From NCBI GenBank assembly GCA_964650085.1, contig CAZYSE010000002.1:4976-44669 (forward strand): a stretch of DNA of 39,694 bases, in the 5' to 3' direction. Positions 666 to 14,699 of the stretch are shown here, one piece after another. Numbering within the stretch: position 1 is the first letter of the stretch; the number at the start of each line of letters is the position of its first letter. The notes below the pieces were generated by a model. That model ran no database searches. It was not told where the DNA came from and worked only from the letters and a program-made list of their open reading frames with translations. This stretch comes from an uncultured Candidatus Saccharibacteria bacterium. GTDB lineage: Bacteria; Patescibacteriota; Dojkabacteria; J137. A program made the translations under genes and the position numbers.

Positions 666-2402
666 TCACATCATGAATTGTTTTTCGTCTTCGATGTCTC
701 TAAGGTCGGTAACTCTTTTAGTCGCGTAGAAATTGTTCTTGTTATATCCCTCTTCTACTTTCTTTACAATACTCTGCAACTCTTCAACTGTGACTGCAGT
801 ATAAAGTTTGTCTTTTTCGTCTTCATTTAATAAAGCCTCTAGTGAAGGAAGCTTTTCTTTCCAAGCAGGTCCGAAAAGAATCACTGGTTTATGTTTTCCA
901 TAGTACATTTTTTGCATTGCTAATAGGAAAACGATGTCTGTTAAGTTAACAAGACCTTGTGATTCAACCACAATGAAAAGTTCTGCACTTGTGTAAAGAT
1001 ATCTTAATCGCTCTACAATATTTGAAAACAAAGTTTCTGTATAGTTCTTTAAGTCTGGAATATCTCCGTTTGGTTCATCAGAGTAGGCAGAGAAATACGG
1101 TCTAAGATAAGCACCGTTGATTTCTAAATTAGATGCATCTTTTAGTTCTTCCATAACAACACTTCCATAACCTCTAGAAGAGTCTAGGAATATTCTGGCT
1201 GTGTTTGCTTTTAAGCTTCCTACCAATTGTCTCAACAATGTTTTGTACGAATCGCTCTCTAATCCAGAGTTTAGACCAATTAACGCAATATCTTTAAAGT
1301 ATTTCAGTTCCATGTTTGCAGCTGCTGGTAAGTTTTCGACTTTTTGAGATTCTTCAGTTTTTAATGGCTCAACTTTCAGAGTCTCTGTTGGAACTGTTTT
1401 AGCTTCCATTACTTTAGGTTCAACAGGCTTTACAGCTGGTTTAGCCGACTCTACTTTAGATTCAGGAGCCTTTGCCACCATTTCATCAAGCCAACTTAAG
1501 TCTATACTTTCTTGCTTGATATCAGGTGCGGTAACCTTTGCTTCCACTTTAGGAGTTTCTGCAATTGGTTGTGATACATCAGGCACTGTAGGTGTCGATT
1601 GTACTGGCGCTGGTTTTGTTTCTAAAGCAGACCAATCTATTTGAGGTTGAACCGCAGGCTTTGGTGCTTCGACTACTGGTTCAGGTTTATTGAAATTTGA
1701 TACTGTATCTGCAACACTTGGTGATGGATAAAAGCTACTTAGATCTACTTCTTGAGTAGCAGGCCTCGAGTCCAATGACTGTGGGTTGTTATTAAACACC
1801 AAAGTATCCATTGGAGGATTAAAATCGTCATATTTGGGTGCGGCATTTTCTGTGTCTGATGCAACTTGTGTAGTTAATGACATGTTCTGCGCAGGCTGTT
1901 GATTCATTAATATATTCTCAGGGGGTGTTGTTAGTGGATTTGTAGCTGGCTGTACTGGATTAGGTGTATTCGAAAAGTTTACACTAGATAATTCGGCGTT
2001 AAAATCGAGTTCTTTATCTTCCAAATCTAATGAGTCCACTTTTTGTTGTGAATTCTCTGGTGTTGTCAGCTTCATTCCGCCATCTAGTACCGCGGTTTGA
2101 GCAGCAGCTGGTTGCAATGTATTAGGTAGATTTGTAGGTTGAAATTGGTTTGGGTCAGATCCAAACACAGGTGCAACTGGTTCTTGTGAAGGCGTTGCTT
2201 GTACTGCTGGTCCTCCATAGTTTGGTGTAAGTGGAGCTCCGGCTGATGGCAATGGATAAGATACGGATGAGTTTCCAAAAAAACTTCCGTAACTCGCCTG
2301 GACATCATTTTGATCGTCATCAGTTTGAGTCTGATAACCTGTAGTTGCTTGTTGAGTGTTGTTATTCTGTGTATTTTTCTTTAGAAAATCTAATACTCCC
2401 AT
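666..2402 (-). CDS. Protein with a long Pro/Gln/Thr-rich disordered N-terminal region and a C-terminal LOG/TIGR00730-like Rossmann domain whose catalytic motif is degenerate
   Basis: The C-terminal ~200 aa follow the LOG-family pattern (IALIGLNSG..., FIVVESQGLVNLTD in place of PGGxGTxxE, KPVILFG). The first ~370 aa are low complexity. Confidence 0.45.
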   Translation of the reverse strand: MGVLDFLKKNTQNNNTQQATTGYQTQTDDDQNDVQASYGSFFGNSSVSYPLPSAGAPLTPNYGGPAVQATPSQEPVAPVFGSDPNQFQPTNLPNTLQPAAAQTAVLDGGMKLTTPENSQQKVDSLDLEDKELDFNAELSSVNFSNTPNPVQPATNPLTTPPENILMNQQPAQNMSLTTQVASDTENAAPKYDDFNPPMDTLVFNNNPQSLDSRPATQEVDLSSFYPSPSVADTVSNFNKPEPVVEAPKPAVQPQIDWSALETKPAPVQSTPTVPDVSQPIAETPKVEAKVTAPDIKQESIDLSWLDEMVAKAPESKVESAKPAVKPVEPKVMEAKTVPTETLKVEPLKTEESQKVENLPAAANMELKYFKDIALIGLNSGLESDSYKTLLRQLVGSLKANTARIFLDSSRGYGSVVMEELKDASNLEINGAYLRPYFSAYSDEPNGDIPDLKNYTETLFSNIVERLRYLYTSAELFIVVESQGLVNLTDIVFLLAMQKMYYGKHKPVILFGPAWKEKLPSLEALLNEDEKDKLYTAVTVEELQSIVKKVEEGYNKNNFYATKRVTDLRDIEDEKQFMM

Positions 2403-2521
2403 AGAAATTTAGTTAACTTAGTTACTACATATAAAATACAGTAAAACCGATGTGACTACAAGAAAAATACTTGTAAAGATTCAAGGAAGAAGGTGAAAGG
2501 TACAGTGCTGAATCTTTGAGC

Positions 2522-2785
2522 TTATGTGAGAGGATCGTTATCAAGTTCAATCTCGAATTCGCCGTTAACTACAGATTCTAGATGCTCGAGCATATCTTCA
2601 AAATCTTGTCCTTCGACTCCATGAAGGCCTGCACCATCCTTAAGATTGTCAAAATCAGAGAAAAGACAGTTAACGCAGTGAAATTCGTAATCTTCGGTTA
2701 GCACATCTACCAATTGTGGGTAGGTATCTATCAGTTCAGATATTTGAATGTGTGGATCTATTTTTATTTTTTTACTTTTTTCCAT
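2522..2785 (-). CDS. DUF1858-like / hybrid-cluster-protein-associated redox disulfide domain protein
   Basis: 87 aa with the pattern I.ELIDTYPQLVDVL...HCVNC...L.DGAGLHG typical of this small family. It overlaps the upstream M16 gene by 22 nt. Confidence 0.55.
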   Translation of the reverse strand: MEKSKKIKIDPHIQISELIDTYPQLVDVLTEDYEFHCVNCLFSDFDNLKDGAGLHGVEGQDFEDMLEHLESVVNGEFEIELDNDPLT

Positions 2786-4095
2786 GCTTCAGTAATTTTG
2801 TCATTCATTTCATCAGGTTGCAATGTTGATACTGCGCCAATGTTAACTTTGCTCCAATCGTAAGATTCTTTTATTTTCTGAATAATTTCAGAGAACTCGA
2901 TACCTTTTACAAGATCAATGTACTCTTCAAGTTGATAGCTTTGGCCGTGCAATTCTTGTTCTCTGTCTTGCTTAATTATCCAATTTAAAACCTGTTCTGG
3001 ATTGTCATATCGCATTTCTTCAGTATCGATAACTCTCTTTAAAATCATTTTGAATATTTCTTCTCCTTCACCTTTCTCCTTTATTCTTTCAATTCCTGAA
3101 TAAGCCTCCTCCAGTACAGTCTGAAGATTATCTGGGGCGAAAGAAGTTTCGATATAATTCATAGATCTACTGAACAATCCCAAGTTATCTGCATAGACTC
3201 CATAAACCATTCCAAGCTCCTCTCGAAGTCTGCGCCACAAAATAGACTTCTGAAACTGCGGGTTAGCTACAACATAATTAGCAAATTTAGAAATTAATCT
3301 ATCTCTGAACGAATGATCTTTGAGAGTTAATCCTGGGAAGCTTAAAGTTAGATAAAGCTGATCAACGTCACCTTTATACTTAGAATCCACTGAAAACTCC
3401 GTGTATTCTGGGAACTTCGATTCGTATTCGTGAATAGCAGCAGTAGATTTTGTTAAGCCAGAAAAATGTTTTTCTAGGGATTTTTTTAAATCGTCGAGTT
3501 CAAAATTTCCAACTATAAAGATCTCGATGTTGTCTGTAGTGTAGTTTCTTTCGTAAAAACTGCGTAAATCTTCACGAGTATACTTTTTTAGATTTTCTTC
3601 TGTTCCAATAATTTGTCTGCTAAATGAAGTATTTTTCTCAGCAAATCTAGATTCTAAAAGAACTTCGATCACTTTTGTATCAACTGAGTCTGCATCTCTT
3701 TTTAGCTCGTCAAGTATGATTCCTCTTTCTTTTTCTACATCTTCTTTCGTATGTAGTGGGTGAACCACAAGCTGGCTATAGTATTTAATGGCATCATCTA
3801 AATATCTGTATGGATAAACTCCGTGAAATGAGGTTACATCAAATGTTGTGTAAGCGTTACCACTTCCGCTAATGGAATTAGAAAAGTCGTCAACCTCTTC
3901 CCATGTTTTAAACTCCTTTGTGCCGTCAAAAGCTAAATGTTCAAGAAAATGAGAAATACCAGTGTTTTTTTCATCTTCGTCTAGTGAACCAATTTTAACT
4001 GTAACGTTTATACTTACAGAGTGGATATCCGTAACGCGATAACAGATACACTTAATACCGTTACTAAGATAGAATTTATGGCTTTGACCCTTCAT
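2764..4095 (-). CDS. M16 (pitrilysin/insulinase) family zinc peptidase
   Basis: The inverted zinc motif HxxEH is present as HFLEH near the N-terminus. The 443 aa length is typical. A TGTTATAAT box lies upstream on the minus strand. Confidence 0.85.
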   Translation of the reverse strand: MKGQSHKFYLSNGIKCICYRVTDIHSVSINVTVKIGSLDEDEKNTGISHFLEHLAFDGTKEFKTWEEVDDFSNSISGSGNAYTTFDVTSFHGVYPYRYLDDAIKYYSQLVVHPLHTKEDVEKERGIILDELKRDADSVDTKVIEVLLESRFAEKNTSFSRQIIGTEENLKKYTREDLRSFYERNYTTDNIEIFIVGNFELDDLKKSLEKHFSGLTKSTAAIHEYESKFPEYTEFSVDSKYKGDVDQLYLTLSFPGLTLKDHSFRDRLISKFANYVVANPQFQKSILWRRLREELGMVYGVYADNLGLFSRSMNYIETSFAPDNLQTVLEEAYSGIERIKEKGEGEEIFKMILKRVIDTEEMRYDNPEQVLNWIIKQDREQELHGQSYQLEEYIDLVKGIEFSEIIQKIKESYDWSKVNIGAVSTLQPDEMNDKITEAWKKVKK

Positions 4096-4135
4096 ATAAT
4101 GTTCCTAATCGGTGATATTATAACACCAGGCGACG

Positions 4136-4152
4136 AAGCTAGAAGTTCGAAA
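4136..4152 (+). repeat. Dispersed 17-mer AAGCTAGAAGTTCGAAA, copy 1
   Basis: Identical to 36785-36801. It is one mismatch from the reverse complement of 16752-16768 and one mismatch from 6881-6897. Confidence 0.8.
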
Positions 4153-4259
4153 TTAGAAGATAGAAAATACGAAGAGGCGAAGATACTAAGATACGAGAAC
4201 AAAGATGTCAGGGATTAGCTTAACTTGAACATTACCTTAATAAACCGTAATATGGTTGT

Positions 4260-4925
4260 ATGATAGATATTAATAAGCTCAAAAGTGCAAAATTGTTCCG
4301 CTGGACTAGAGATTACTTGTTTGAAGTTGTAGCTAAGATTGTATTGGATGACCCTATTCTGCTATCGGGTTTTAAAGAAATTGATAGGGCTGACTTTGTC
4401 CCGGAAAAGCTAAGAGATTCGGCATATTCAGATACGGAAATCGAAGTGGCTTATGGCGAAAAACTCACAAGTCCAGTAATTCTTGCAGATATGCTTGCCC
4501 AACTAAAACCAGTTCCAGGTGGAGTTTATCTAGATATTGGTACAGGAACGGGTTATGCAGCTGCACTATTAGCCTACTGTGCTACAGATTCTGGTAAGGT
4601 TTACAGTATGGAAAGAGTCCAATGGCTTTGGGAAGCAGCAAGAGCAAGTATCAAAAAGTATAAGTTTAACAATATTGAGGTAGTTTATAGAGATGGTCTT
4701 GAAGGCCTACCACTAAAAGCTCCATTTGATGGGATTCATGTTTCATTTATAATAGAACCTAGTACTGTAGATAAGCTAAAGACGCAATTGAAGCAAGCCA
4801 ATGGTAGGATGGTTTTCCCCGACACGAATAATAATATTGTTGTTTTAGAGAGAAATGGCGACAACTACACACAAGAAATTGTAAGAGGTCATGTTTTTCA
4901 GAGTGGGAAAATTGGTTTAGCTTAA
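4260..4925 (+). CDS. pcm: Protein-L-isoaspartate O-methyltransferase
   Basis: SAM-binding motif I YLDIGTGTGYAAALLA and typical PIMT length and architecture. Confidence 0.8.
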   Translation: MIDINKLKSAKLFRWTRDYLFEVVAKIVLDDPILLSGFKEIDRADFVPEKLRDSAYSDTEIEVAYGEKLTSPVILADMLAQLKPVPGGVYLDIGTGTGYAAALLAYCATDSGKVYSMERVQWLWEAARASIKKYKFNNIEVVYRDGLEGLPLKAPFDGIHVSFIIEPSTVDKLKTQLKQANGRMVFPDTNNNIVVLERNGDNYTQEIVRGHVFQSGKIGLA

Positions 4926-5251
4926 TTAATCTTTGAAAGTTTTCCTTCGCCAACTAAATAAACTGCAGGTAGTGTAATGTCGTATTTAGATAGAGTTTCT
5001 TCTGCTAATTGTTCAGCCTTAATCTTGTATCCTTTTATAGATCTTAGTGTCGTTTCGCTTTGTAACTTAGAGTCGCACCAACCGCACCAATTAGTTTCTA
5101 CCACCAACACGCTCAGATCTTGTGAGCTGATAAGGGATTCAATCTCGGAAACTTGCTCAACAGCATCGTTGGAGTACACATCTACTTTCAAGTATCCCCC
5201 TAATGTAAGGGCTCCTAAAACTAAAACTGTGACTAAAATGTATTTCTTCAT
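4922..5251 (-). CDS. Membrane-anchored or secreted thioredoxin-like protein
   Basis: N-terminal hydrophobic signal or anchor, plus the CxxC motif WCGWC. Confidence 0.6.
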   Translation of the reverse strand: MKKYILVTVLVLGALTLGGYLKVDVYSNDAVEQVSEIESLISSQDLSVLVVETNWCGWCDSKLQSETTLRSIKGYKIKAEQLAEETLSKYDITLPAVYLVGEGKLSKIN

Positions 5252-5325
5252 ATTCGCGATATAAAGAATATCAACAAATAGAAGTTATGTAAAGTCTTTC
5301 CTGCAATCGTATTGTATAATCGGGT

Positions 5326-6114
5326 ATGTTAGATTTTAATAAAACCATTACCCTACTTGGCGGACAGGCTTTTAACTGGAAGCAGGTAGCAAACAAATAT
5401 ATTGGGTTTACCTCAACTTCAATTTTGGTATTATCTGAGCGTTTAGAGGTATTCGGAGACCAATTTTTTGAATTTAATAACTACTTCGGCTACAAAGCAA
5501 ATCTCAATTTCCCTCAAGATGAGAATATTATTCAGGCAATTAGAGAGTATGGTGACTTACGAATATTAAATCAAGATTTTGAACAAACCTTATTAAGTTT
5601 CATACTAACTTCACACAAAAATATTAAGGCTGTTAGAAAGTTAATTGGCGACATTTCAGAGAAATACGGTACTACTATTAAAACACCTTATGGTGATTTT
5701 AAAACATTTCCAACTGCCGAAGCTTTATCTAGCGCTAGCGAGGAAGATTTAAGAAAACTTGGTTGCGGTTTTCGTGCTCGCTATCTACTTTTAGCGGCGC
5801 AAAAGCTGGCTTCAGAAAGGGATGTTTACAAAAAGTTTCTTACAAGACAAGAATGGGAAGAATATTTGATTCAATTTGTTGGAGTTGGCGAAAAAATTCG
5901 AGACTGTGTTCTTGTGTTTGGACTTGGTTTTAAGGATATTACCCCTCTAGATATCTGGGGAAAACGAGTTCTTGTTCAATACTATGGTGTCGATCCAAAA
6001 CTGAGTTATAATGAAATGAGAATGAAATTTACAGAAATGTTTGGCGAGAACACAGCAATTGTGGGCCAATACCTATTTGAATACATAAGGGACGAAGCTC
6101 GAAGCTTTAAGTAA
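5326..6114 (+). CDS. 8-oxoguanine DNA glycosylase / AP lyase (OGG1-type HhH-GPD)
   Basis: HhH-GPD signature GVGEKIRDCVLVFGLG...PLDIW with the catalytic Lys and Asp in OGG1-like spacing. Confidence 0.7.
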   Translation: MLDFNKTITLLGGQAFNWKQVANKYIGFTSTSILVLSERLEVFGDQFFEFNNYFGYKANLNFPQDENIIQAIREYGDLRILNQDFEQTLLSFILTSHKNIKAVRKLIGDISEKYGTTIKTPYGDFKTFPTAEALSSASEEDLRKLGCGFRARYLLLAAQKLASERDVYKKFLTRQEWEEYLIQFVGVGEKIRDCVLVFGLGFKDITPLDIWGKRVLVQYYGVDPKLSYNEMRMKFTEMFGENTAIVGQYLFEYIRDEARSFK

Positions 6115-6176
6115 GAAGATCGAAAAACGAAAACGTAGTCAAACTACTACTCAAAATATTACCTGCTGAGAAAACT

Positions 6177-10819: not shown

Positions 10820-10893
10820 TTTCTTGAATAGATGTATAAAAAGCTACTGACTATGATATAATTAACTTATCACGATGAGAGGACTACCAAAGG

Positions 10894-11415
10894 TTAACCT
10901 TGATTACCGCGGGAATGCCTCTCTTTTTTATGGCTTTCTCCCAATGTTTGCTTTTTCCCACTAATCGATACCACCGACCCAGCGTATTTTCTCAGCAATG
11001 AGGAATATTTTGTATTCGGTACAATTACCTTCTCCAACTTATTACTTTCTGCGAGATATTCCACTAAACAAAAGAAATCGCCATCACCTGAGACTACGAT
11101 GGCTTTGTCGTAAGTAGAATAATGGATCATAGCGTGCAGTACGAGCTCCGCATCGACATTACCCTTATAAGTTACCTTCTGGTCTTTTTTTATCGCCAAA
11201 ACGTTTTTAAACACGATAATAAAGCCTTGTTCTTGAAGCTGTTGGTACAGTTTTGCGTTTTCTGGGATGAAACCGATAAATAAGTAAGCCTTGCTCACCT
11301 TATATTTATTTTTCAAATAAAGTCTAAACTTTCCAAAGTCTAGTTTCCAATGCAGGGAGTTAATTCCTAAGTTTAAGTTTTGACTGTCGATAAAAGCGTA
11401 TATTATTTGGTTCAT
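10894..11415 (-). CDS. NYN (LabA/DUF88) domain protein, predicted PIN-like RNase
   Basis: N-terminal AFIDSQNL and the VSGDGDF motif are characteristic of NYN domains. Its ATG shares one nt with the upstream stop codon. Confidence 0.65.
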   Translation of the reverse strand: MNQIIYAFIDSQNLNLGINSLHWKLDFGKFRLYLKNKYKVSKAYLFIGFIPENAKLYQQLQEQGFIIVFKNVLAIKKDQKVTYKGNVDAELVLHAMIHYSTYDKAIVVSGDGDFFCLVEYLAESNKLEKVIVPNTKYSSLLRKYAGSVVSISGKKQTLGESHKKERHSRGNQG

Positions 11416-12323
11416 TATATTAAATTTTTCCAGTAAATTAATGTCTTTTCCTTATTTGTAATTGTATTGTTATCCCCCCAGATAGAAATTACTTTTTCTC
11501 TCATCTTTTTTTGAAATTCGAAAGTTGATTGCCAATTTCCAATAAACCATTCTAGGAAATCTTTGTGGTTTAGTATAGGTATCATACCATCTGAAAGCAC
11601 AAAAATATGATCTTGCGGTTCTAGTTGTATTTGATGTACCTGAAAAAAACTTTCGGCTTCTTCTTCCCCAGTAAAGCAACCCCACCCTACTCTATTATCA
11701 TTTTCGTCATGAATATCATTATTATTTCTTAAAACATTACACCAAATTGGCTCCCAAAAAGCTTCTGGTTTAAGGCTAGCCTTTAACTCTGCAGGATACT
11801 CTTTTTGATACTGCCCAGCTGCTACTAATGAGTCTAAGTATTTACTCGCTTTCATAATCTGATAATCTACTTTTTCTACGTTTTCTAGACTTGATCCTCT
11901 TAGTACAAAAACGTAGCAATCTTCCAAACCTCCGTAGATTAACGAATCGCCCACTTGTACAGCAGCCATACCAACAGTTTCGGCACAATCGTAGGTTAAG
12001 TAACCTTTTGCAGTTTTGTTAAGAGATTGGTTTAATACTTTTATACTTTTATTCGCATCTACTAAAGCTGAATTGAATGTTGTTGTAGAAATTGTTCCAT
12101 CTTGAACAAAACGCAGCAAGGAATTTAACATTGTGTTGCAAAAAACTTCGCCTGCTTCAAACCCGTGGTCATCTTGTGGGTATTTCCGTAAACCGGATCT
12201 TGTAAGTTCCCTTATGGGAGAGTCAGAAACGACTGCGATTTTATTTGCTTCGTCTAGTGCGTATACATCTCCTTGTTGTAAGAAAGATCCATCTCCGCTA
12301 ACGTTTTCGTGATATACAAACAT
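11415..12323 (-). CDS. PP2C/PPM-like phosphatase-fold protein
   Basis: PPM-like blocks are present: AVVSDS, GGLEDCYVFVLRG and FVLSDGM. Identification is by eye only. Confidence 0.4.
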   Translation of the reverse strand: MFVYHENVSGDGSFLQQGDVYALDEANKIAVVSDSPIRELTRSGLRKYPQDDHGFEAGEVFCNTMLNSLLRFVQDGTISTTTFNSALVDANKSIKVLNQSLNKTAKGYLTYDCAETVGMAAVQVGDSLIYGGLEDCYVFVLRGSSLENVEKVDYQIMKASKYLDSLVAAGQYQKEYPAELKASLKPEAFWEPIWCNVLRNNNDIHDENDNRVGWGCFTGEEEAESFFQVHQIQLEPQDHIFVLSDGMIPILNHKDFLEWFIGNWQSTFEFQKKMREKVISIWGDNNTITNKEKTLIYWKNLI

Positions 12324-12326
12324 ACT

Positions 12327-12794
12327 TTAAATTAATGGTAATTGTTCAATTTCTACTAGATGTTCTTGGATATGTTCTATATCAAGATTTATTGACCTGT
12401 GAGGTGTATCTTCTACACCCGGACCATATTGAGATTTCCAATGATCTTCATCAAGTGATTTATACTTATCAACTAGATCTTGCCAGCTTTTTACAAATTC
12501 CTCGTAAATTTCAGTCCACGACTTTGCAGACCTTTTCTCTACTTCATACTTATTAAAAGCATCAAGCTGACTTTCCTTAATCCAATTTATTGGAGGTTTT
12601 CCGGAAATTAACATTCCTAATTCCTTTATTGTAAGCAAATTCCATCCACAATAATGTGCCATTACATCTTTCAAGCTCCATTTTCCAAATAATGCCTCTT
12701 CTCTTTTGTATTCTGGGAAATTAGTTACAGCATTGGTTATTTCTTTTATTGCAGCCTCTAATTCGCTGATAAGTTGTTGAACTTCTTGATCCAT
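12327..12794 (-). CDS. DinB/ClbS(DfsB)-like four-helix-bundle protein
   Basis: WSLKDVMAHYCGW... and a C-terminal H-rich helix resemble the DinB-fold/ClbS pattern. 155 aa. Confidence 0.45.
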   Translation of the reverse strand: MDQEVQQLISELEAAIKEITNAVTNFPEYKREEALFGKWSLKDVMAHYCGWNLLTIKELGMLISGKPPINWIKESQLDAFNKYEVEKRSAKSWTEIYEEFVKSWQDLVDKYKSLDEDHWKSQYGPGVEDTPHRSINLDIEHIQEHLVEIEQLPLI

Positions 12795-12811
12795 ATTCTT
12801 TACGTGTATCT

Positions 12812-12845
12812 GTTCAGAATATCATTAGGAGAAATTTGAGTAAAG
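12812..12845 (-). promoter_or_regulatory. 34-bp promoter-like repeat, copy A (minus strand reads CTTTACTCAAATTTCTCCTAATGATATTCTGAAC)
   Basis: Perfectly identical to 13771-13804. It contains TTTACT-N17-TATTCT with a TG at the extended -10 position, 18 nt upstream of the ATG at 12794. Confidence 0.6.
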
Positions 12846-12901
12846 ATATTTATGAGGTTAACAGATTAGTAAAAGACTGCAGGAACTTTGATCCTTAACC
12901 C

Positions 12902-13741
12902 CTAAGAAATAAATTCTAAGTCCAAATTTGGAAAATCAGTTGAAATTACATTAGGTGTGCCATCGTTATTCCAATGTATCCCATAAAAATTCAGCCTTTG
13001 GTTGATACGAAATTTCATTTTATTTGCTTCCGCTTCATTTCCGTCAATCTTGGCTTGATTGTATTTAGCTTCAAACACAGCATCTAACGTAGTGTTATTT
13101 CTTACTCTGAAAAGTTTTACCTTTGAGCTTTTAGGCGCGTTTGATTTGCTGTTGTAATCTATAAGTTGCGATTTTGAAATTTCCCCTGATGCACCGATAT
13201 ACCACTGCTCGTACTTGCCTGAATCAATTAGATATTCGTTTTGTGTGAATTGACTATGATCGCCCGAGTAGGTATTGTCTGGAAAAAGGTATGTTACATA
13301 TTGTAAACCATTTGCGTTGTCTAGATTAAGTCCTGTCCTATCCTTCTTGTGCCAACTTTCTTTTTGCGCGGCAATAAAAACGACTCCCGCCTTTAAATTT
13401 CCAAAATGATCTATAAGCCTTCCTGCCACATACCCCAAATCAGGTTCGTCAGGACTATCGTAATCACCATCGAATAAGATTGTAACTTGACTAGTCTCTC
13501 TTCTAAGACTGTCAATCTGCGGAATAAGATAATTTTCTATTAAATTATCAATTTCATCTTTATCCATTCCGTTCCAAGCTCCTGCACCTCTAAGAGCAAT
13601 AATTCGAGAAGACTTCTCAACTATCTGCTTCATAATTTCATTCCATTTGGACATAGAGTCGTCGAAGATGGCTTTGCCAGATAAAAGGGATTCTTCTAGT
13701 AACGTCTGCCCTGGGACTCTTATTAGTTTTGATTCATCCAT
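12902..13741 (-). CDS. Hypothetical 279-aa protein (possible Rossmann/SLOG-like N-terminal half)
   Basis: Clean ORF. The strand-loop patterns IIALRGAGAWNG and ILFDGDYD only weakly suggest a nucleotide-binding fold. Confidence 0.5.
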   Translation of the reverse strand: MDESKLIRVPGQTLLEESLLSGKAIFDDSMSKWNEIMKQIVEKSSRIIALRGAGAWNGMDKDEIDNLIENYLIPQIDSLRRETSQVTILFDGDYDSPDEPDLGYVAGRLIDHFGNLKAGVVFIAAQKESWHKKDRTGLNLDNANGLQYVTYLFPDNTYSGDHSQFTQNEYLIDSGKYEQWYIGASGEISKSQLIDYNSKSNAPKSSKVKLFRVRNNTTLDAVFEAKYNQAKIDGNEAEANKMKFRINQRLNFYGIHWNNDGTPNVISTDFPNLDLEFIS

Positions 13742-13770
13742 AAATTATAAATAGTACTTGTTAGTCTTAA

Positions 13771-13804
13771 GTTCAGAATATCATTAGGAGAAATTTGAGT
13801 AAAG
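13771..13804 (-). promoter_or_regulatory. 34-bp promoter-like repeat, copy B
   Basis: Perfect copy of 12812-12845, located 30 nt upstream of the ATG at 13741. Confidence 0.6.
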
Positions 13805-13831: not shown

Positions 13832-14188
13832 TTATTTTCTTAGAATCTTTTCCATCACTTTGCCTTTCGCTAATTCGTCTACCATTTTATCTAAATACCT
13901 TATTGCCTGCATGGTTGGATTTTTAATATCCTCTACCCTAACTCCACAAATAACACCTTTTATTAGTGATCTTGCTGGATTCATTTTAGGCGCTTTATCA
14001 AAAAACGTTTCAAAATCTGTTTCTTTCTCGAGTTGAGCTTTTAATTCGGATTGAGAGTATCCAGTCAACCAACTAATGATTTCGTCGACTTCTGCTTTTG
14101 TTCTTCCTTTTTTCTCTGCCTTAGTTACGTAATGAGGGTAAACGCTTGCAACGCTGGTTTTGTAAATTCGGTGATTATCTTCGTTCAT
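13832..14188 (-). CDS. DUF2200 domain protein
   Basis: [33 protein letters not shown]...[15 protein letters not shown] matches my recollection of the conserved DUF2200 sequence. Confidence 0.6.
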
Positions 14189-14249: not shown

Positions 14250-14495
14250 TTACTTAAATCTATTTCCCTTCGCTAATGTATTCTCACCTTCGTCTAAAAC
14301 ATCTACATTATCAAAGCTATTATCTATAAATGTATTATTTTTCCCTTTATTTACAAACTGTGCCCTTGGATTAGTTACGATTGCTGATGGAGTTTTCCTC
14401 ACAAAGATTTTGACAATGACATAAATTATATATGTTGAAATTAGAGCAGCTAACACAGCAATGATGATCTGTAATACAATGTATGTAAGGTCCAT
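14250..14495 (-). CDS. Small single-pass membrane protein
   Basis: N-terminal hydrophobic helix (IVLQIIIAVLAALISTYIIYVIV). 81 aa. Confidence 0.4.
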   Translation of the reverse strand: MDLTYIVLQIIIAVLAALISTYIIYVIVKIFVRKTPSAIVTNPRAQFVNKGKNNTFIDNSFDNVDVLDEGENTLAKGNRFK

Positions 14496-14613: not shown

Positions 14614-14626
14614 TTTATGTATAAAA

Positions 14627-14699
14627 AGCAGATGACGAGACTCGAACTCGCGACCTCTTCCTTGGCAAGGAAGCGTTCTACCAATTGAACTACATCTGC
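14627..14699 (-). tRNA. tRNA-Gly (GCC)
   Basis: The reverse complement folds as GCAGATG/CATCTGC acceptor, GTTC/GAAC D stem, CTTCC-TTGCCAA-GGAAG anticodon arm and GCGAG-TTCGAGT-CTCGT T arm, with discriminator U. No CCA is encoded. Confidence 0.92.

Follow-up and report, generated by a model that had tools for sequence, protein, structure and literature searches.

Two neighboring units on the minus strand of a bacterial contig are preceded by exactly the same 34 nucleotides of noncoding DNA. What is this repeat, how did it come to stand in front of both units, and does it join them into a functional system? The locus lies in a stretch of 39,694 nucleotides (the window, meaning the whole of the DNA that we analyzed), whose host is one lineage of the uncultured Candidatus Dojkabacteria. 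One unit consists of a single gene for a 279-amino-acid (aa) protein, and the other of three genes, for a DinB-like protein of 155 aa, a PP2C-like protein of 302 aa, and a predicted NYN-domain RNase of 173 aa (Table 1). A first-pass annotation, made from the sequence alone, had explained the repeat as a shared operator or promoter or as a recent promoter duplication, and had taken the trio for a candidate stress-response, toxin-like, or defense module.

Table 1. Features of the repeat locus and of a third, similar promoter, by position in the window
Feature	Position	Strand	Basis
Third promoter, TTTACA-N17-TATTCT with TGA	5265..5293	-	Boxes and spacing identical, spacer different
173-aa NYN-domain (LabA-like) predicted RNase	10894..11415	-	Pfam NYN
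302-aa PP2C/PPM-fold protein	11415..12323	-	AF2, Foldseek
155-aa DinB-fold protein, DUF1706 (ClbS-like) family	12327..12794	-	Pfam DUF1706
34-mer copy 1, putative promoter of the DinB-like/PP2C-like/NYN unit	12812..12845	-	Exact repeat; L028-L031 ortholog
Boxes of copy 1	-35 TTTACT, 12844-12839; TG, 12824-12823; -10 TATTCT, 12821-12816	-	
959-bp segment of the window that the sister lineage lacks	12812..13770 (= 12846-13804)	-	L028-L031 comparison
279-aa gene, predicted stand-alone SLOG-like (TRPM MHR1/2-like) Rossmannoid protein	12902..13741	-	AF2 and Foldseek
34-mer copy 2, same putative promoter, before the 279-aa gene	13771..13804	-	Exact repeat; blastn against L028
DUF2200 gene, upstream neighbor	13832..14188	-	Pfam, 1.9e-53
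tRNA-Gly(GCC), with decayed tRNA fragments downstream	14627..14699	-	Rfam

Sequence and position of the repeat

The two copies of the 34-mer (GTTCAGAATATCATTAGGAGAAATTTGAGTAAAG) are 100% identical, and their starts lie 959 nt apart. From the end of copy 1 it is 17 nt to the ATG (12794) of the 155-aa gene, and from the end of copy 2 it is 29 nt to the ATG (13741) of the 279-aa gene. The perfect repeat, which had been described as lying just upstream of two minus-strand start codons, was confirmed in its coordinates, its identity, and its position before each ATG. When the two intergenic regions are aligned, identity begins and breaks off abruptly at the two ends of the 34-mer.

These two copies are the only ones in the window at up to three mismatches, where shuffled sequences give an expectation of zero. 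A search of 653 kb (the window and 95 related loci, with orthologous single copies set aside) recovered no extra copy at up to 10 mismatches, and we therefore rejected a dispersed repeat or the end of a mobile element. The 24-nt core of the 34-mer was found in neither the metagenome nor the viral contig collections. A structured RNA, terminator, or riboswitch was rejected as well, given that Rfam recovered two tRNAs only and that both intergenic regions, in which we detected no terminator or RNA structure, fold no better than their shuffled counterparts.

Promoter assignment

Read on the minus strand, both copies have the form C-TTTACT-N17-TATTCT-GAAC with a TGn extended -10 element, in agreement with the first-pass annotation. 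The 34-mer would then be a core promoter, made up of a -35 hexamer, a 17-nt spacer that carries the extended -10 TG, a -10 hexamer, and four further bases, and transcripts that start from its two copies would have short leaders of ~15 and ~27 nt. Each hexamer, TTTACT as well as TATTCT, matches the sigma-70 consensus at four of six positions (8/12 together), in a CPR host whose promoters are unmapped, and this is why a promoter scan with a threshold of 9/12 does not list them. To our knowledge, no promoters have been mapped in Dojkabacteria so far.

The motif TTTAC-N15-TGATATTCT occurs three times in the window against an expectation of 0.06, in every case just upstream of a start codon. Its third occurrence precedes an unrelated 109-aa gene (4922-5251), and in the ortholog of this promoter in loci L024 and L025, TTTACA, TGATATTCT, and the spacing between them are kept and the spacer has diverged. 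Conserved boxes around a spacer that is free to change point to a generic promoter; nothing in them suggests a special operator. The sole substitution that separates the 34-mer of the window from that of L028, a contig of the sister lineage described below, falls in the spacer too, and the 34-mer has no dyad, internal symmetry, or direct-repeat substructure. Judging from these sequence patterns, the 34-mer is best read as an ordinary, generic promoter, probably of the sigma-70 type. The motif TTTAC-N15-TGATATTCT should be usable as a promoter motif for Dojkabacteria, alongside the TATAAT at -12 of leaderless genes, an arrangement that many other genes of the window use instead.

Comparison with a sister lineage

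Four contigs (L028 to L031), with ~86% nucleotide identity to the window, represent a sister lineage in which the genes run SerHyd, DUF2200, 34-mer, DinB-like, 302-aa, NYN, a reversed 161-aa gene, and GT314. The DUF2200 gene there directly precedes a single 34-mer, identical to that of the window at 33 of 34 positions, and the DinB-like gene follows it at once, with no 279-aa gene between. Since the sister lineage has one 34-mer and no 279-aa gene, the window differs from it by a 959-bp indel: the 279-aa gene with a new leader of 29 nt and a 3' flank of 56 nt, and one 34-mer. With blastn, positions 14188-13770 of the window align to 1726-2143 of L028 and positions 12845-8861 to 2109-6154; because these segments overlap on L028, both copies of the window map onto the same 34 to 35 nt (2109-2143). 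A presence/absence polymorphism of 959 bp separates the two lineages, and the repeat forms its junction.

In the alignment, the flanks of the single L028 copy find their counterparts to the left of copy 2 and to the right of copy 1, and the spacers that adjoin the 34-mer show weak similarity to the L028 spacer. The sequence downstream of copy 1, which L028 to L031 share, appears to be the ancestral leader, and the upstream flank of copy 2 (the 3' end of DUF2200 and its spacer) would represent the ancestral left junction. In L024, the one deeper outgroup, the locus is rearranged and lacks both the DUF2200 gene and the 34-mer. The region around the repeat is variable, mosaic, and fast-changing; the 155-aa gene, by its pattern of identity, is a recombination mosaic, and on its upstream side the variable block is bounded by the tRNA-Gly(GCC).

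The 279-aa protein

The AlphaFold2 (AF2) model of the 279-aa protein has a pLDDT of 92.7, and Foldseek ranks 1 to 18 are all TRPM N-terminal regions (probability 0.99 to 1.0, TMq 0.41 to 0.50). The N-terminal domains of TRPM proteins are SLOG domains (PMC7306681), and the protein is predicted to have a TRPM-like SLOG fold. It has no Pfam match above the cutoff, and the LSDAT/SLOG family of Pfam was found in none of the family members searched (16/16) up to an E value of 1; 10 of the 16 have weak matches to DUF3854. The protein has an invariant LRGAGxxNG loop and a DGDxD motif, and its family is rare, with 68 representatives only among 1.84 billion. Most of its longer members have no Pfam domain, two have ankyrin repeats, and one has PP2C_2. 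A stand-alone TRPM-like SLOG family is hereby defined at the level of the fold.

The three downstream genes

The DinB, PP2C, and NYN assignments of the first-pass annotation were all borne out, if by different routes. The 173-aa protein matches Pfam NYN over residues 8 to 147 (5.7e-15; 56.5 bits against a cutoff of 24.2). The 155-aa protein passes the DUF1706 model marginally (26.2 bits against 24.2) and falls below the cutoff for DinB_2 (18.0 against 24.8); two homologue clusters only were found for it. For the 302-aa protein, Pfam PP2C_2 stays under its cutoff (21.1 bits against 24) and covers the C-terminal part only, and the fold was recognized with AF2 (pLDDT 96.1) and Foldseek, whose top matches are all PP2C phosphatases such as PstP and tPphA (probability 1.0, TM normalized to the target ~0.7). 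Residues D19, D34, and D245, which align with the metal ligands D18, D34, and D193 of tPphA, are invariant or nearly so; the fourth metal ligand is unaligned, and the invariant E292 near the C terminus is a candidate for it. NCBIfam gave no match for any of six local proteins. The 302-aa family comprises 36 clusters, found almost only in Dojkabacteria; it is a second rare family, of PP2C fold and nearly confined to this group, that is now defined at the fold level.

The tight coupling of the trio was likewise confirmed in the sequence: a 3-nt gap (12324-12326) separates the 155- and 302-aa genes, and the 302- and 173-aa genes share a 1-nt TAATG stop/start overlap at 11415. The three genes are very probably cotranscribed. 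Tight spacing is normal in the window, where 14 of the 31 same-strand gene pairs lie no more than 10 nt apart. As for synteny, the trio was recovered in the sister lineage (L028 to L031) and nowhere else. The 17 other loci of the 302-aa family have unrelated, heterogeneous neighbors, among which an NYN gene appears once, 1.9 kb away, and the 64 loci of NYN relatives hold no homologue of the PP2C-like, DinB-like, or 279-aa genes. The more distant DinB-like ortholog of L024 is solitary, with neither a PP2C-like nor an NYN gene beside it. With PADLOC, the 173-aa protein matches generic NYN models only, and the other three (279, 155, and 302 aa) match no model. With synteny confined to the sister lineage, no system match, and a spacing that is usual for this genome, we could not uphold the suggestion of a functional, defense, or toxin module. 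The data give no support to a conserved functional system either: in a variable region by the tRNA-Gly that is prone to recombination, the three genes form a juxtaposition specific to the lineage, and no new defense system is revealed here.

Origin of the repeat

Which of the two lineages changed? We favor an insertion in the window over a loss in the sister lineage. The closest relatives of the 279-aa protein are at most 54% identical to it, while its neighbors reach 89 to 97% identity with L028 proteins, a discrepancy that favors acquisition. Our preferred reading, to which we give a probability of roughly 0.7, is that an ordinary promoter was copied by the insertion of the 279-aa gene and that the downstream trio is a lineage-specific juxtaposition with no conserved system behind it. 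A 925-bp piece with the SLOG-like gene sits between the putative promoter and its operon, and the resulting order, DUF2200, promoter, 279-aa gene, promoter, DinB-like, PP2C-like, NYN, gives each unit a complete, identical promoter. The insertion was probably recent. An incoming DNA that shared the 34 nt could have entered through a single crossover or site-specifically, or the target could have been duplicated during the insertion. The two explanations first offered for the repeat have thus fared differently: the promoter duplication is borne out by the sister-lineage comparison, and the shared operator finds no support, in view of a 34-mer without symmetry and of the recurrence of the same boxes, with another spacer, before an unrelated gene.

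No recombinase, integrase, or mobile-element gene was found among the Pfam-scanned genes near the repeat, and homologues of the 279-aa family elsewhere have no flanking repeats. Several vehicles were considered and rejected: an integron cassette or att site, for want of an attC-like palindrome, of core sites, and of an integrase in the scanned neighbors; a phage origin, because no relative of the 279-, 302-, or 155-aa protein was found in viral contigs; and a compositional island, because GC content is flat (0.34 to 0.39).

The polymorphism can also be read in the opposite direction, with the arrangement of the window ancestral and the 279-aa gene lost from the sister lineage by homologous recombination between the 34-bp repeats, one of which was left. 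Deletion between direct repeats would yield exactly the single-copy structure of L028 to L031, and genes of the 279-aa family lie within 1.3 to 3.5 kb of a DUF2200 gene in two other genomes, L021 and L023, so that such a gene may be an old resident of the neighborhood. An earlier duplication would still be needed to make the repeats, however, and the copies agree at 34 of 34 positions whereas the lineages differ at 1 of 34, and by ~14% overall, as fits a young duplication; nor does the 279-aa protein have any relative above 54% identity, although its neighbors have theirs at 89 to 97%. We consider this history unlikely. We give still less credence to an artifact of assembly, in which a short repeat common to two loci or strains, or to a small circular molecule, threaded the 279-aa gene into the contig. 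At 34 nt the repeat is indeed short, and a mixture of strains with and without the gene would produce a loop in the assembly graph. Yet most metagenome assemblers end with k-mers longer than 34, so that each junction should have been bridged by real reads; the segment shows no shift in GC content, and the 279-aa gene is co-oriented with its neighbors and sensibly spaced from both promoter copies. The artifact is accordingly the least credible of the alternatives.

A different objection concerns function. Were the 34-mer an operator or regulatory site that selection holds identical, the 279-aa gene and the trio could form a coregulated stress, toxin, or defense module. The two units necessarily have the same promoter strength and would respond to any factor that binds the 34 nt, and a SLOG-like sensor fold, a PP2C fold, and an NYN nuclease all have the flavor of conflict systems. 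Against this, the 34-mer has no operator-like substructure, the trio of the sister lineage runs from one copy without the 279-aa gene, the third promoter has the same boxes around a different spacer, outside the genus no two of the four genes are conserved neighbors, and PADLOC matches no system; we regard coregulation of this kind as improbable. Highly improbable, too, is a young four-gene nucleotide-sensing conflict module, in which the insertion was not neutral and the SLOG-like protein, as a sensor of nucleotide signals, was recruited under a promoter shared with the PP2C-like phosphatase and the NYN RNase. A 4,746-aa protein elsewhere, in which a 279-like domain is fused to PP2C_2, would hint independently at a functional link between SLOG and PP2C, but the PP2C part of this fusion shows no sequence relationship to the 302-aa family, and we therefore rejected the domain fusions of the 279-aa family as a clue to function. 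The insertion of the 279-aa gene remains our preferred reading, and the repeat is a real but ordinary feature. It offers a clean natural case of how a compact CPR genome may gain a gene without silencing its neighbors, the newcomer landing behind a promoter that was already there and that ends up on both sides of it.

Comparison with known systems

The 279-aa protein shares with the TRPM-type (LSDAT) members of the SLOG (SMF/DprA-LOG) superfamily a predicted Rossmannoid fold and a loop rich in glycine that follows the first strand; it differs in that no Pfam LSDAT or SLOG model matches it and that its TM-scores reach just 0.42 to 0.50, and, unlike known SLOG systems, it stands alone, without an effector domain or a conserved partner. 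The 302-aa protein resembles the PPM/PP2C phosphatases (PstP, tPphA, Stp1, SpoIIE) in its fold, and its acidic residues D19, D34, and D245-G246 align with their metal ligands, but it has DSP in place of their DG(H/M)GG motif and, unlike them, has a helical insertion of ~60 residues and E292 as its invariant C-terminal acidic residue. With ClbS and the other DUF1706 proteins of the DinB superfamily, the 155-aa protein has in common a helical bundle of fitting size and conserved His residues, whereas its gene lies outside the colibactin-type context of ClbS.

The 34-mer agrees with sigma-70 promoters that have an extended -10 (TGn) in its TG, in hexamers 17 nt apart, and in its position 15 to 30 nt upstream of a start codon, and the promoter at 5265-5293 and its ortholog agree with them in keeping their boxes and freeing their spacer; the hexamers of the 34-mer depart from the consensus, which they match at 4/6 each. 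Finally, in flanked gene-cassette insertions, whether Campbell-type or site-specific, with integron cassettes as the extreme, as in the window, a gene sits behind a promoter with identical sequence on both sides. Integron cassettes have the imperfect palindrome of attC and the core sites GTTRRRY/RYYYAAC, neither of which the window matches, and the window also differs from cassette insertions in that its flanking repeat is itself the putative promoter.

Gene order and the repeated 34-mer

The 34-mer GTTCAGAATATCATTAGGAGAAATTTGAGTAAAG occurs as two identical copies 959 nt apart, one ending 17 nt upstream of the 155-aa start codon (ATG) and the other 29 nt upstream of the 279-aa start codon, and exact matching thus confirms the perfect repeat upstream of two minus-strand starts reported in the first-pass annotation. 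These are the only copies at ≤3 mismatches in the 39.7-kb window (0 in 100 shuffles), and when the two intergenic regions are aligned to each other, identity switches on and off sharply at the 34-mer edges. On the coding (minus) strand, the element reads C TTTACT (17 nt, ending TGA) TATTCT GAAC.

Features of the window considered in this section
Feature	Position	Strand	Assignment
GAAGCTAGAAGTTCGAAATTAGAA, dispersed intergenic repeat	4135-4158	+	
GAAGCTAGAAGTTCGAAATTAGAA	16746-16790	-	
GAAGCTAGAAGTTCGAAATTAGAA	36758-36801		
Third box-pattern site	5265-5293	-	TTTACA-N17-TATTCT with TGA, 13 nt upstream of a 109-aa gene
tRNA-Gly end repeat, distal copy	10832-10851		
173-aa gene	10894-11415	-	Pfam NYN, 5.7e-15
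302-aa gene	11415-12323	-	Pfam PP2C_2, 21.1 bits, under cutoff 24
155-aa gene	12327-12794	-	Pfam DUF1706 (ClbS family, DinB fold), 26.2 bits versus cutoff 24.2
Divergent segment of 155-aa gene	12366-12635	-	
34-mer, copy 1	12812-12845	-	
279-aa gene	12902-13741	-	No Pfam family
34-mer, copy 2	13771-13804	-	
DUF2200 gene	13832-14188	-	
Second window-specific segment	14189-14542		
81-aa gene	14250-14495		Membrane protein
tRNA-Gly last 10 nt + next 10 nt	14617-14636		

A 959-bp indel between sister lineages

Through homologue clusters of the 155-aa protein, we reached contigs of a sister lineage in ENA and Logan (L028-L031). Their order is MsrB - Ser-hydrolase - DUF2200 - 155 aa - 302 aa - 173 aa - (161 aa, reversed) - GT314, which equals that of the window, including the gap (4 nt as counted here) and 1-nt overlap among the 155-, 302-, and 173-aa genes (the trio), but without the 279-aa gene. 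Two window segments align with L028 by blastn (~86% nucleotide identity overall): 14188-13770 with positions 1726-2143 and 12845-8861 with positions 2109-6154; because the two L028 ranges overlap, both window 34-mers map to one 34-35-base stretch of that contig. Each sister contig has one 34-mer, with a single A-to-G change located in the spacer. Downstream of it, the leader and 5' coding sequence are near-identical to those of window copy 1, and upstream lies the DUF2200 3' end, as at copy 2. Since a single copy carries the flanks of both, the lineages differ by a 959-bp indel comprising the 279-aa gene, its own leader, its 3' flank, and one additional 34-mer, with the repeat as the junction. 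"Recent promoter duplication," which the first-pass annotation had offered as an alternative reading, is the correct one, the duplication being the product of a single-gene indel.

The same single-copy picture would be expected if a deletion between the 34-bp repeats had occurred in the sister lineage and the window state were older, and two other genomes do have a 279-family gene within 1.3 to 3.5 kb of DUF2200. The next outgroup contig, L024, cannot polarize the direction, because its locus is rearranged and has no DUF2200, 302-aa gene, 173-aa gene, or 34-mer. Sequence comparison favors recent acquisition of the 279-aa gene by the window's lineage, because its neighbors share 89 to 97% protein identity with L028 (68% for the mosaic DinB-like protein) whereas the closest relative of the 279-aa protein found anywhere is 54% identical, because the window copies match at 34/34 positions, and because the gene is missing from 4/4 sister contigs shown. 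The lineages differ at 1/34 positions in the 34-mer and by ~14% overall. Pfam scans of neighboring genes found no integrase, the 34-mer contains no palindrome, and homologues of the 279 gene at other loci lack repeats on their flanks.

A candidate promoter motif

That the 34-mer is a promoter is an inference well supported by comparison. A consensus promoter scan of the window does not list it because it matches at just 8/12 positions. The box pattern TTTAC-N15-TGATATTCT, however, has three occurrences in the window versus 0.06 expected, the third preceding an unrelated gene whose product has no Pfam match. Orthologues of this third site in contigs L024 (11261-11289) and L025 (5708-5736) preserve TTTACA, TGATATTCT, and the exact distance between them but differ in the sequence of the spacer, the signature of a real promoter. 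Given that divergence, the identical spacers of the two 34-mers reflect recent copying and not operator selection, and the earlier proposal of a common operator kept by selection is not borne out. Neither intergenic region folds better as RNA than shuffled sequence, and no terminator was found between the 279 gene and copy 1. A strong TATAAT, often with TG before it, begins ~12 nt ahead of the ATG of many window genes (for example, upstream of 5326, 10245, 19175, 27789, and 39367), which suggests that leaderless or near-leaderless mRNAs are common in the window's genome.

The trio as a proposed system

Synteny of the DinB-like/PP2C-like/NYN trio, on which its candidacy as a defense or stress module depended, holds in part: the genes are adjacent in the sister lineage, but the arrangement is absent at the other 302, NYN, and DinB loci compared. 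Searches with the window's proteins (tblastn) at 17 other 302-homologue loci recovered no DinB or 279 homologue and a single NYN gene, 1.9 kb from a 59%-identical homologue, the interval holding a NUDIX gene and, on the opposite strand, a gene for a metallophosphatase. Housekeeping genes surround a 42% homologue, and a 39% homologue sits with a T4SS-like ATPase, an unknown gene, and an integrase; Pfam annotation of 49 neighboring proteins revealed no recurrent partner. No 279-, 155-, or 302-aa homologue lies ≤5 kb from NYN relatives at 64 metagenome loci (28 to 69% identity), and the L024 DinB-like orthologue (72% identical) stands alone, flanked by the 161-aa gene and GT314. By these comparisons, the trio is conserved just within one genus-level lineage, which shared ancestry explains. 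The tight coupling is as first described (3 nt separate the 155-aa gene from the 302-aa gene, which in turn shares a 1-nt TAATG overlap with the 173-aa gene). Co-transcription is likely, but the spacing is not special, because 14/31 of the window's same-strand neighbor pairs lie ≤10 nt from each other. PADLOC matched local proteins with generic NYN models at most, and NCBIfam with none. Lacking a shared neighborhood outside the sister lineage, the undescribed three-gene system is unsupported, as is a dedicated functional module. PP2C-fold homologues (loci L004-L018) often occur amid genes of accessory or conflict type (AbiEii, Fic, Cas2, integrase, PLD nuclease, AAA_14-DUF4143).

A recombination-prone variable region

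This part of the window is variable and prone to recombination, with identity to L028 swinging between 52% and 100% across 60-nt windows; GC is flat along the window (0.34 to 0.39). The DinB-like gene is a recombination mosaic: its divergent segment has 52 to 63% nucleotide identity to L028 versus 80 to 100% in the flanks, and its product is 87% identical to L028 and 64% to L024 over residues 1-55, versus 53% and 74% over residues 56-145. The second window-specific segment, with no flanking direct repeat seen, carries the 81-aa gene missing from L028, where ~76 nt that include GC-rich palindromic sequence stand instead. Palindromes of this short, GC-rich type (e.g., CCTGCCTGTCGGCAGACAGG) at L028 ~1585-1605 and 1655-1700, beside a tRNA-Gly remnant and absent from the window, may be a small REP/MITE-like element.

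The variable block begins at tRNA-Gly, with decayed tRNA fragments adjoining. The tRNA end with its 10 downstream nt recurs (17/20, 13 contiguous) 43 nt beyond the NYN stop codon, so that the pair encloses everything between the 81-aa gene and NYN, both included, and resembles attL/attR; L028 shows a weaker match, no integrase was seen, and the repeat may be due to chance. Three copies of GAAGCTAGAAGTTCGAAATTAGAA lie within 3 mismatches versus 0 expected, and the window also has a related inverted pair of 44 nt.

Protein families

The DinB, PP2C, and NYN folds guessed from sequence were right, by Pfam for NYN and DUF1706 and by AlphaFold2 and Foldseek for PP2C, and the "unknown" 279-aa protein is, by its model, SLOG-like. 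That model (16-sequence alignment, pLDDT 92.7) has TRPM channel N-terminal regions as Foldseek hits 1-18 without exception; these regions are SLOG (SMF/DprA-LOG) domains with a proposed role in nucleotide binding (PMC7306681). An LRGAGxxNG loop is invariant among the 16 members; none matches SLOG/LSDAT Pfam models, and 10/16 match DUF3854 weakly. Most longer relatives have no recognizable additional domain, two (P0081 and P0083) are fused to ankyrin repeats, and in one of 4746 aa (P0096) the 279-like domain (residues 3-241) precedes Pfam PP2C_2 (397-534). Nothing apart from this fusion hints at a link between SLOG and PP2C, and the PP2C portion of the fusion bears no sequence relation to the window's 302-aa family.

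The 302-aa model (32-sequence alignment, pLDDT 96.1) has as best Foldseek matches only PP2C phosphatases, bacterial and eukaryotic (PstP, tPphA, PppA, Stp1, SpoIIE; probability 1.0, TM to target ~0.7). A profile search of PDB sequences pairs the metal ligands D18, D34, and D193-G194 of tPphA with D19, D34, and D245-G246 of the 302-aa protein, residues that vary little or not at all across its family. The family is small (36 homologue clusters, with named members from Candidatus Dojkabacteria); 15 GTDB loci (one genome per species) hold a clear homologue, mostly labeled Dojkabacteria, with a few MAGs labeled Saccharibacteria, Patescibacteria, or just "bacterium," and Mucilaginibacter contributes two more hits, each a match of 35 residues. 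The 155-aa protein has just two homologue clusters.

What novelty is left is modest and comprises a Dojkabacteria promoter motif, a SLOG-like family that is rare (68 representatives among 1.84 billion) and stands alone, and a PP2C-fold family nearly confined to Dojkabacteria, whose member in the window carries DSP in place of the DGxGG motif usual in PP2C phosphatases.
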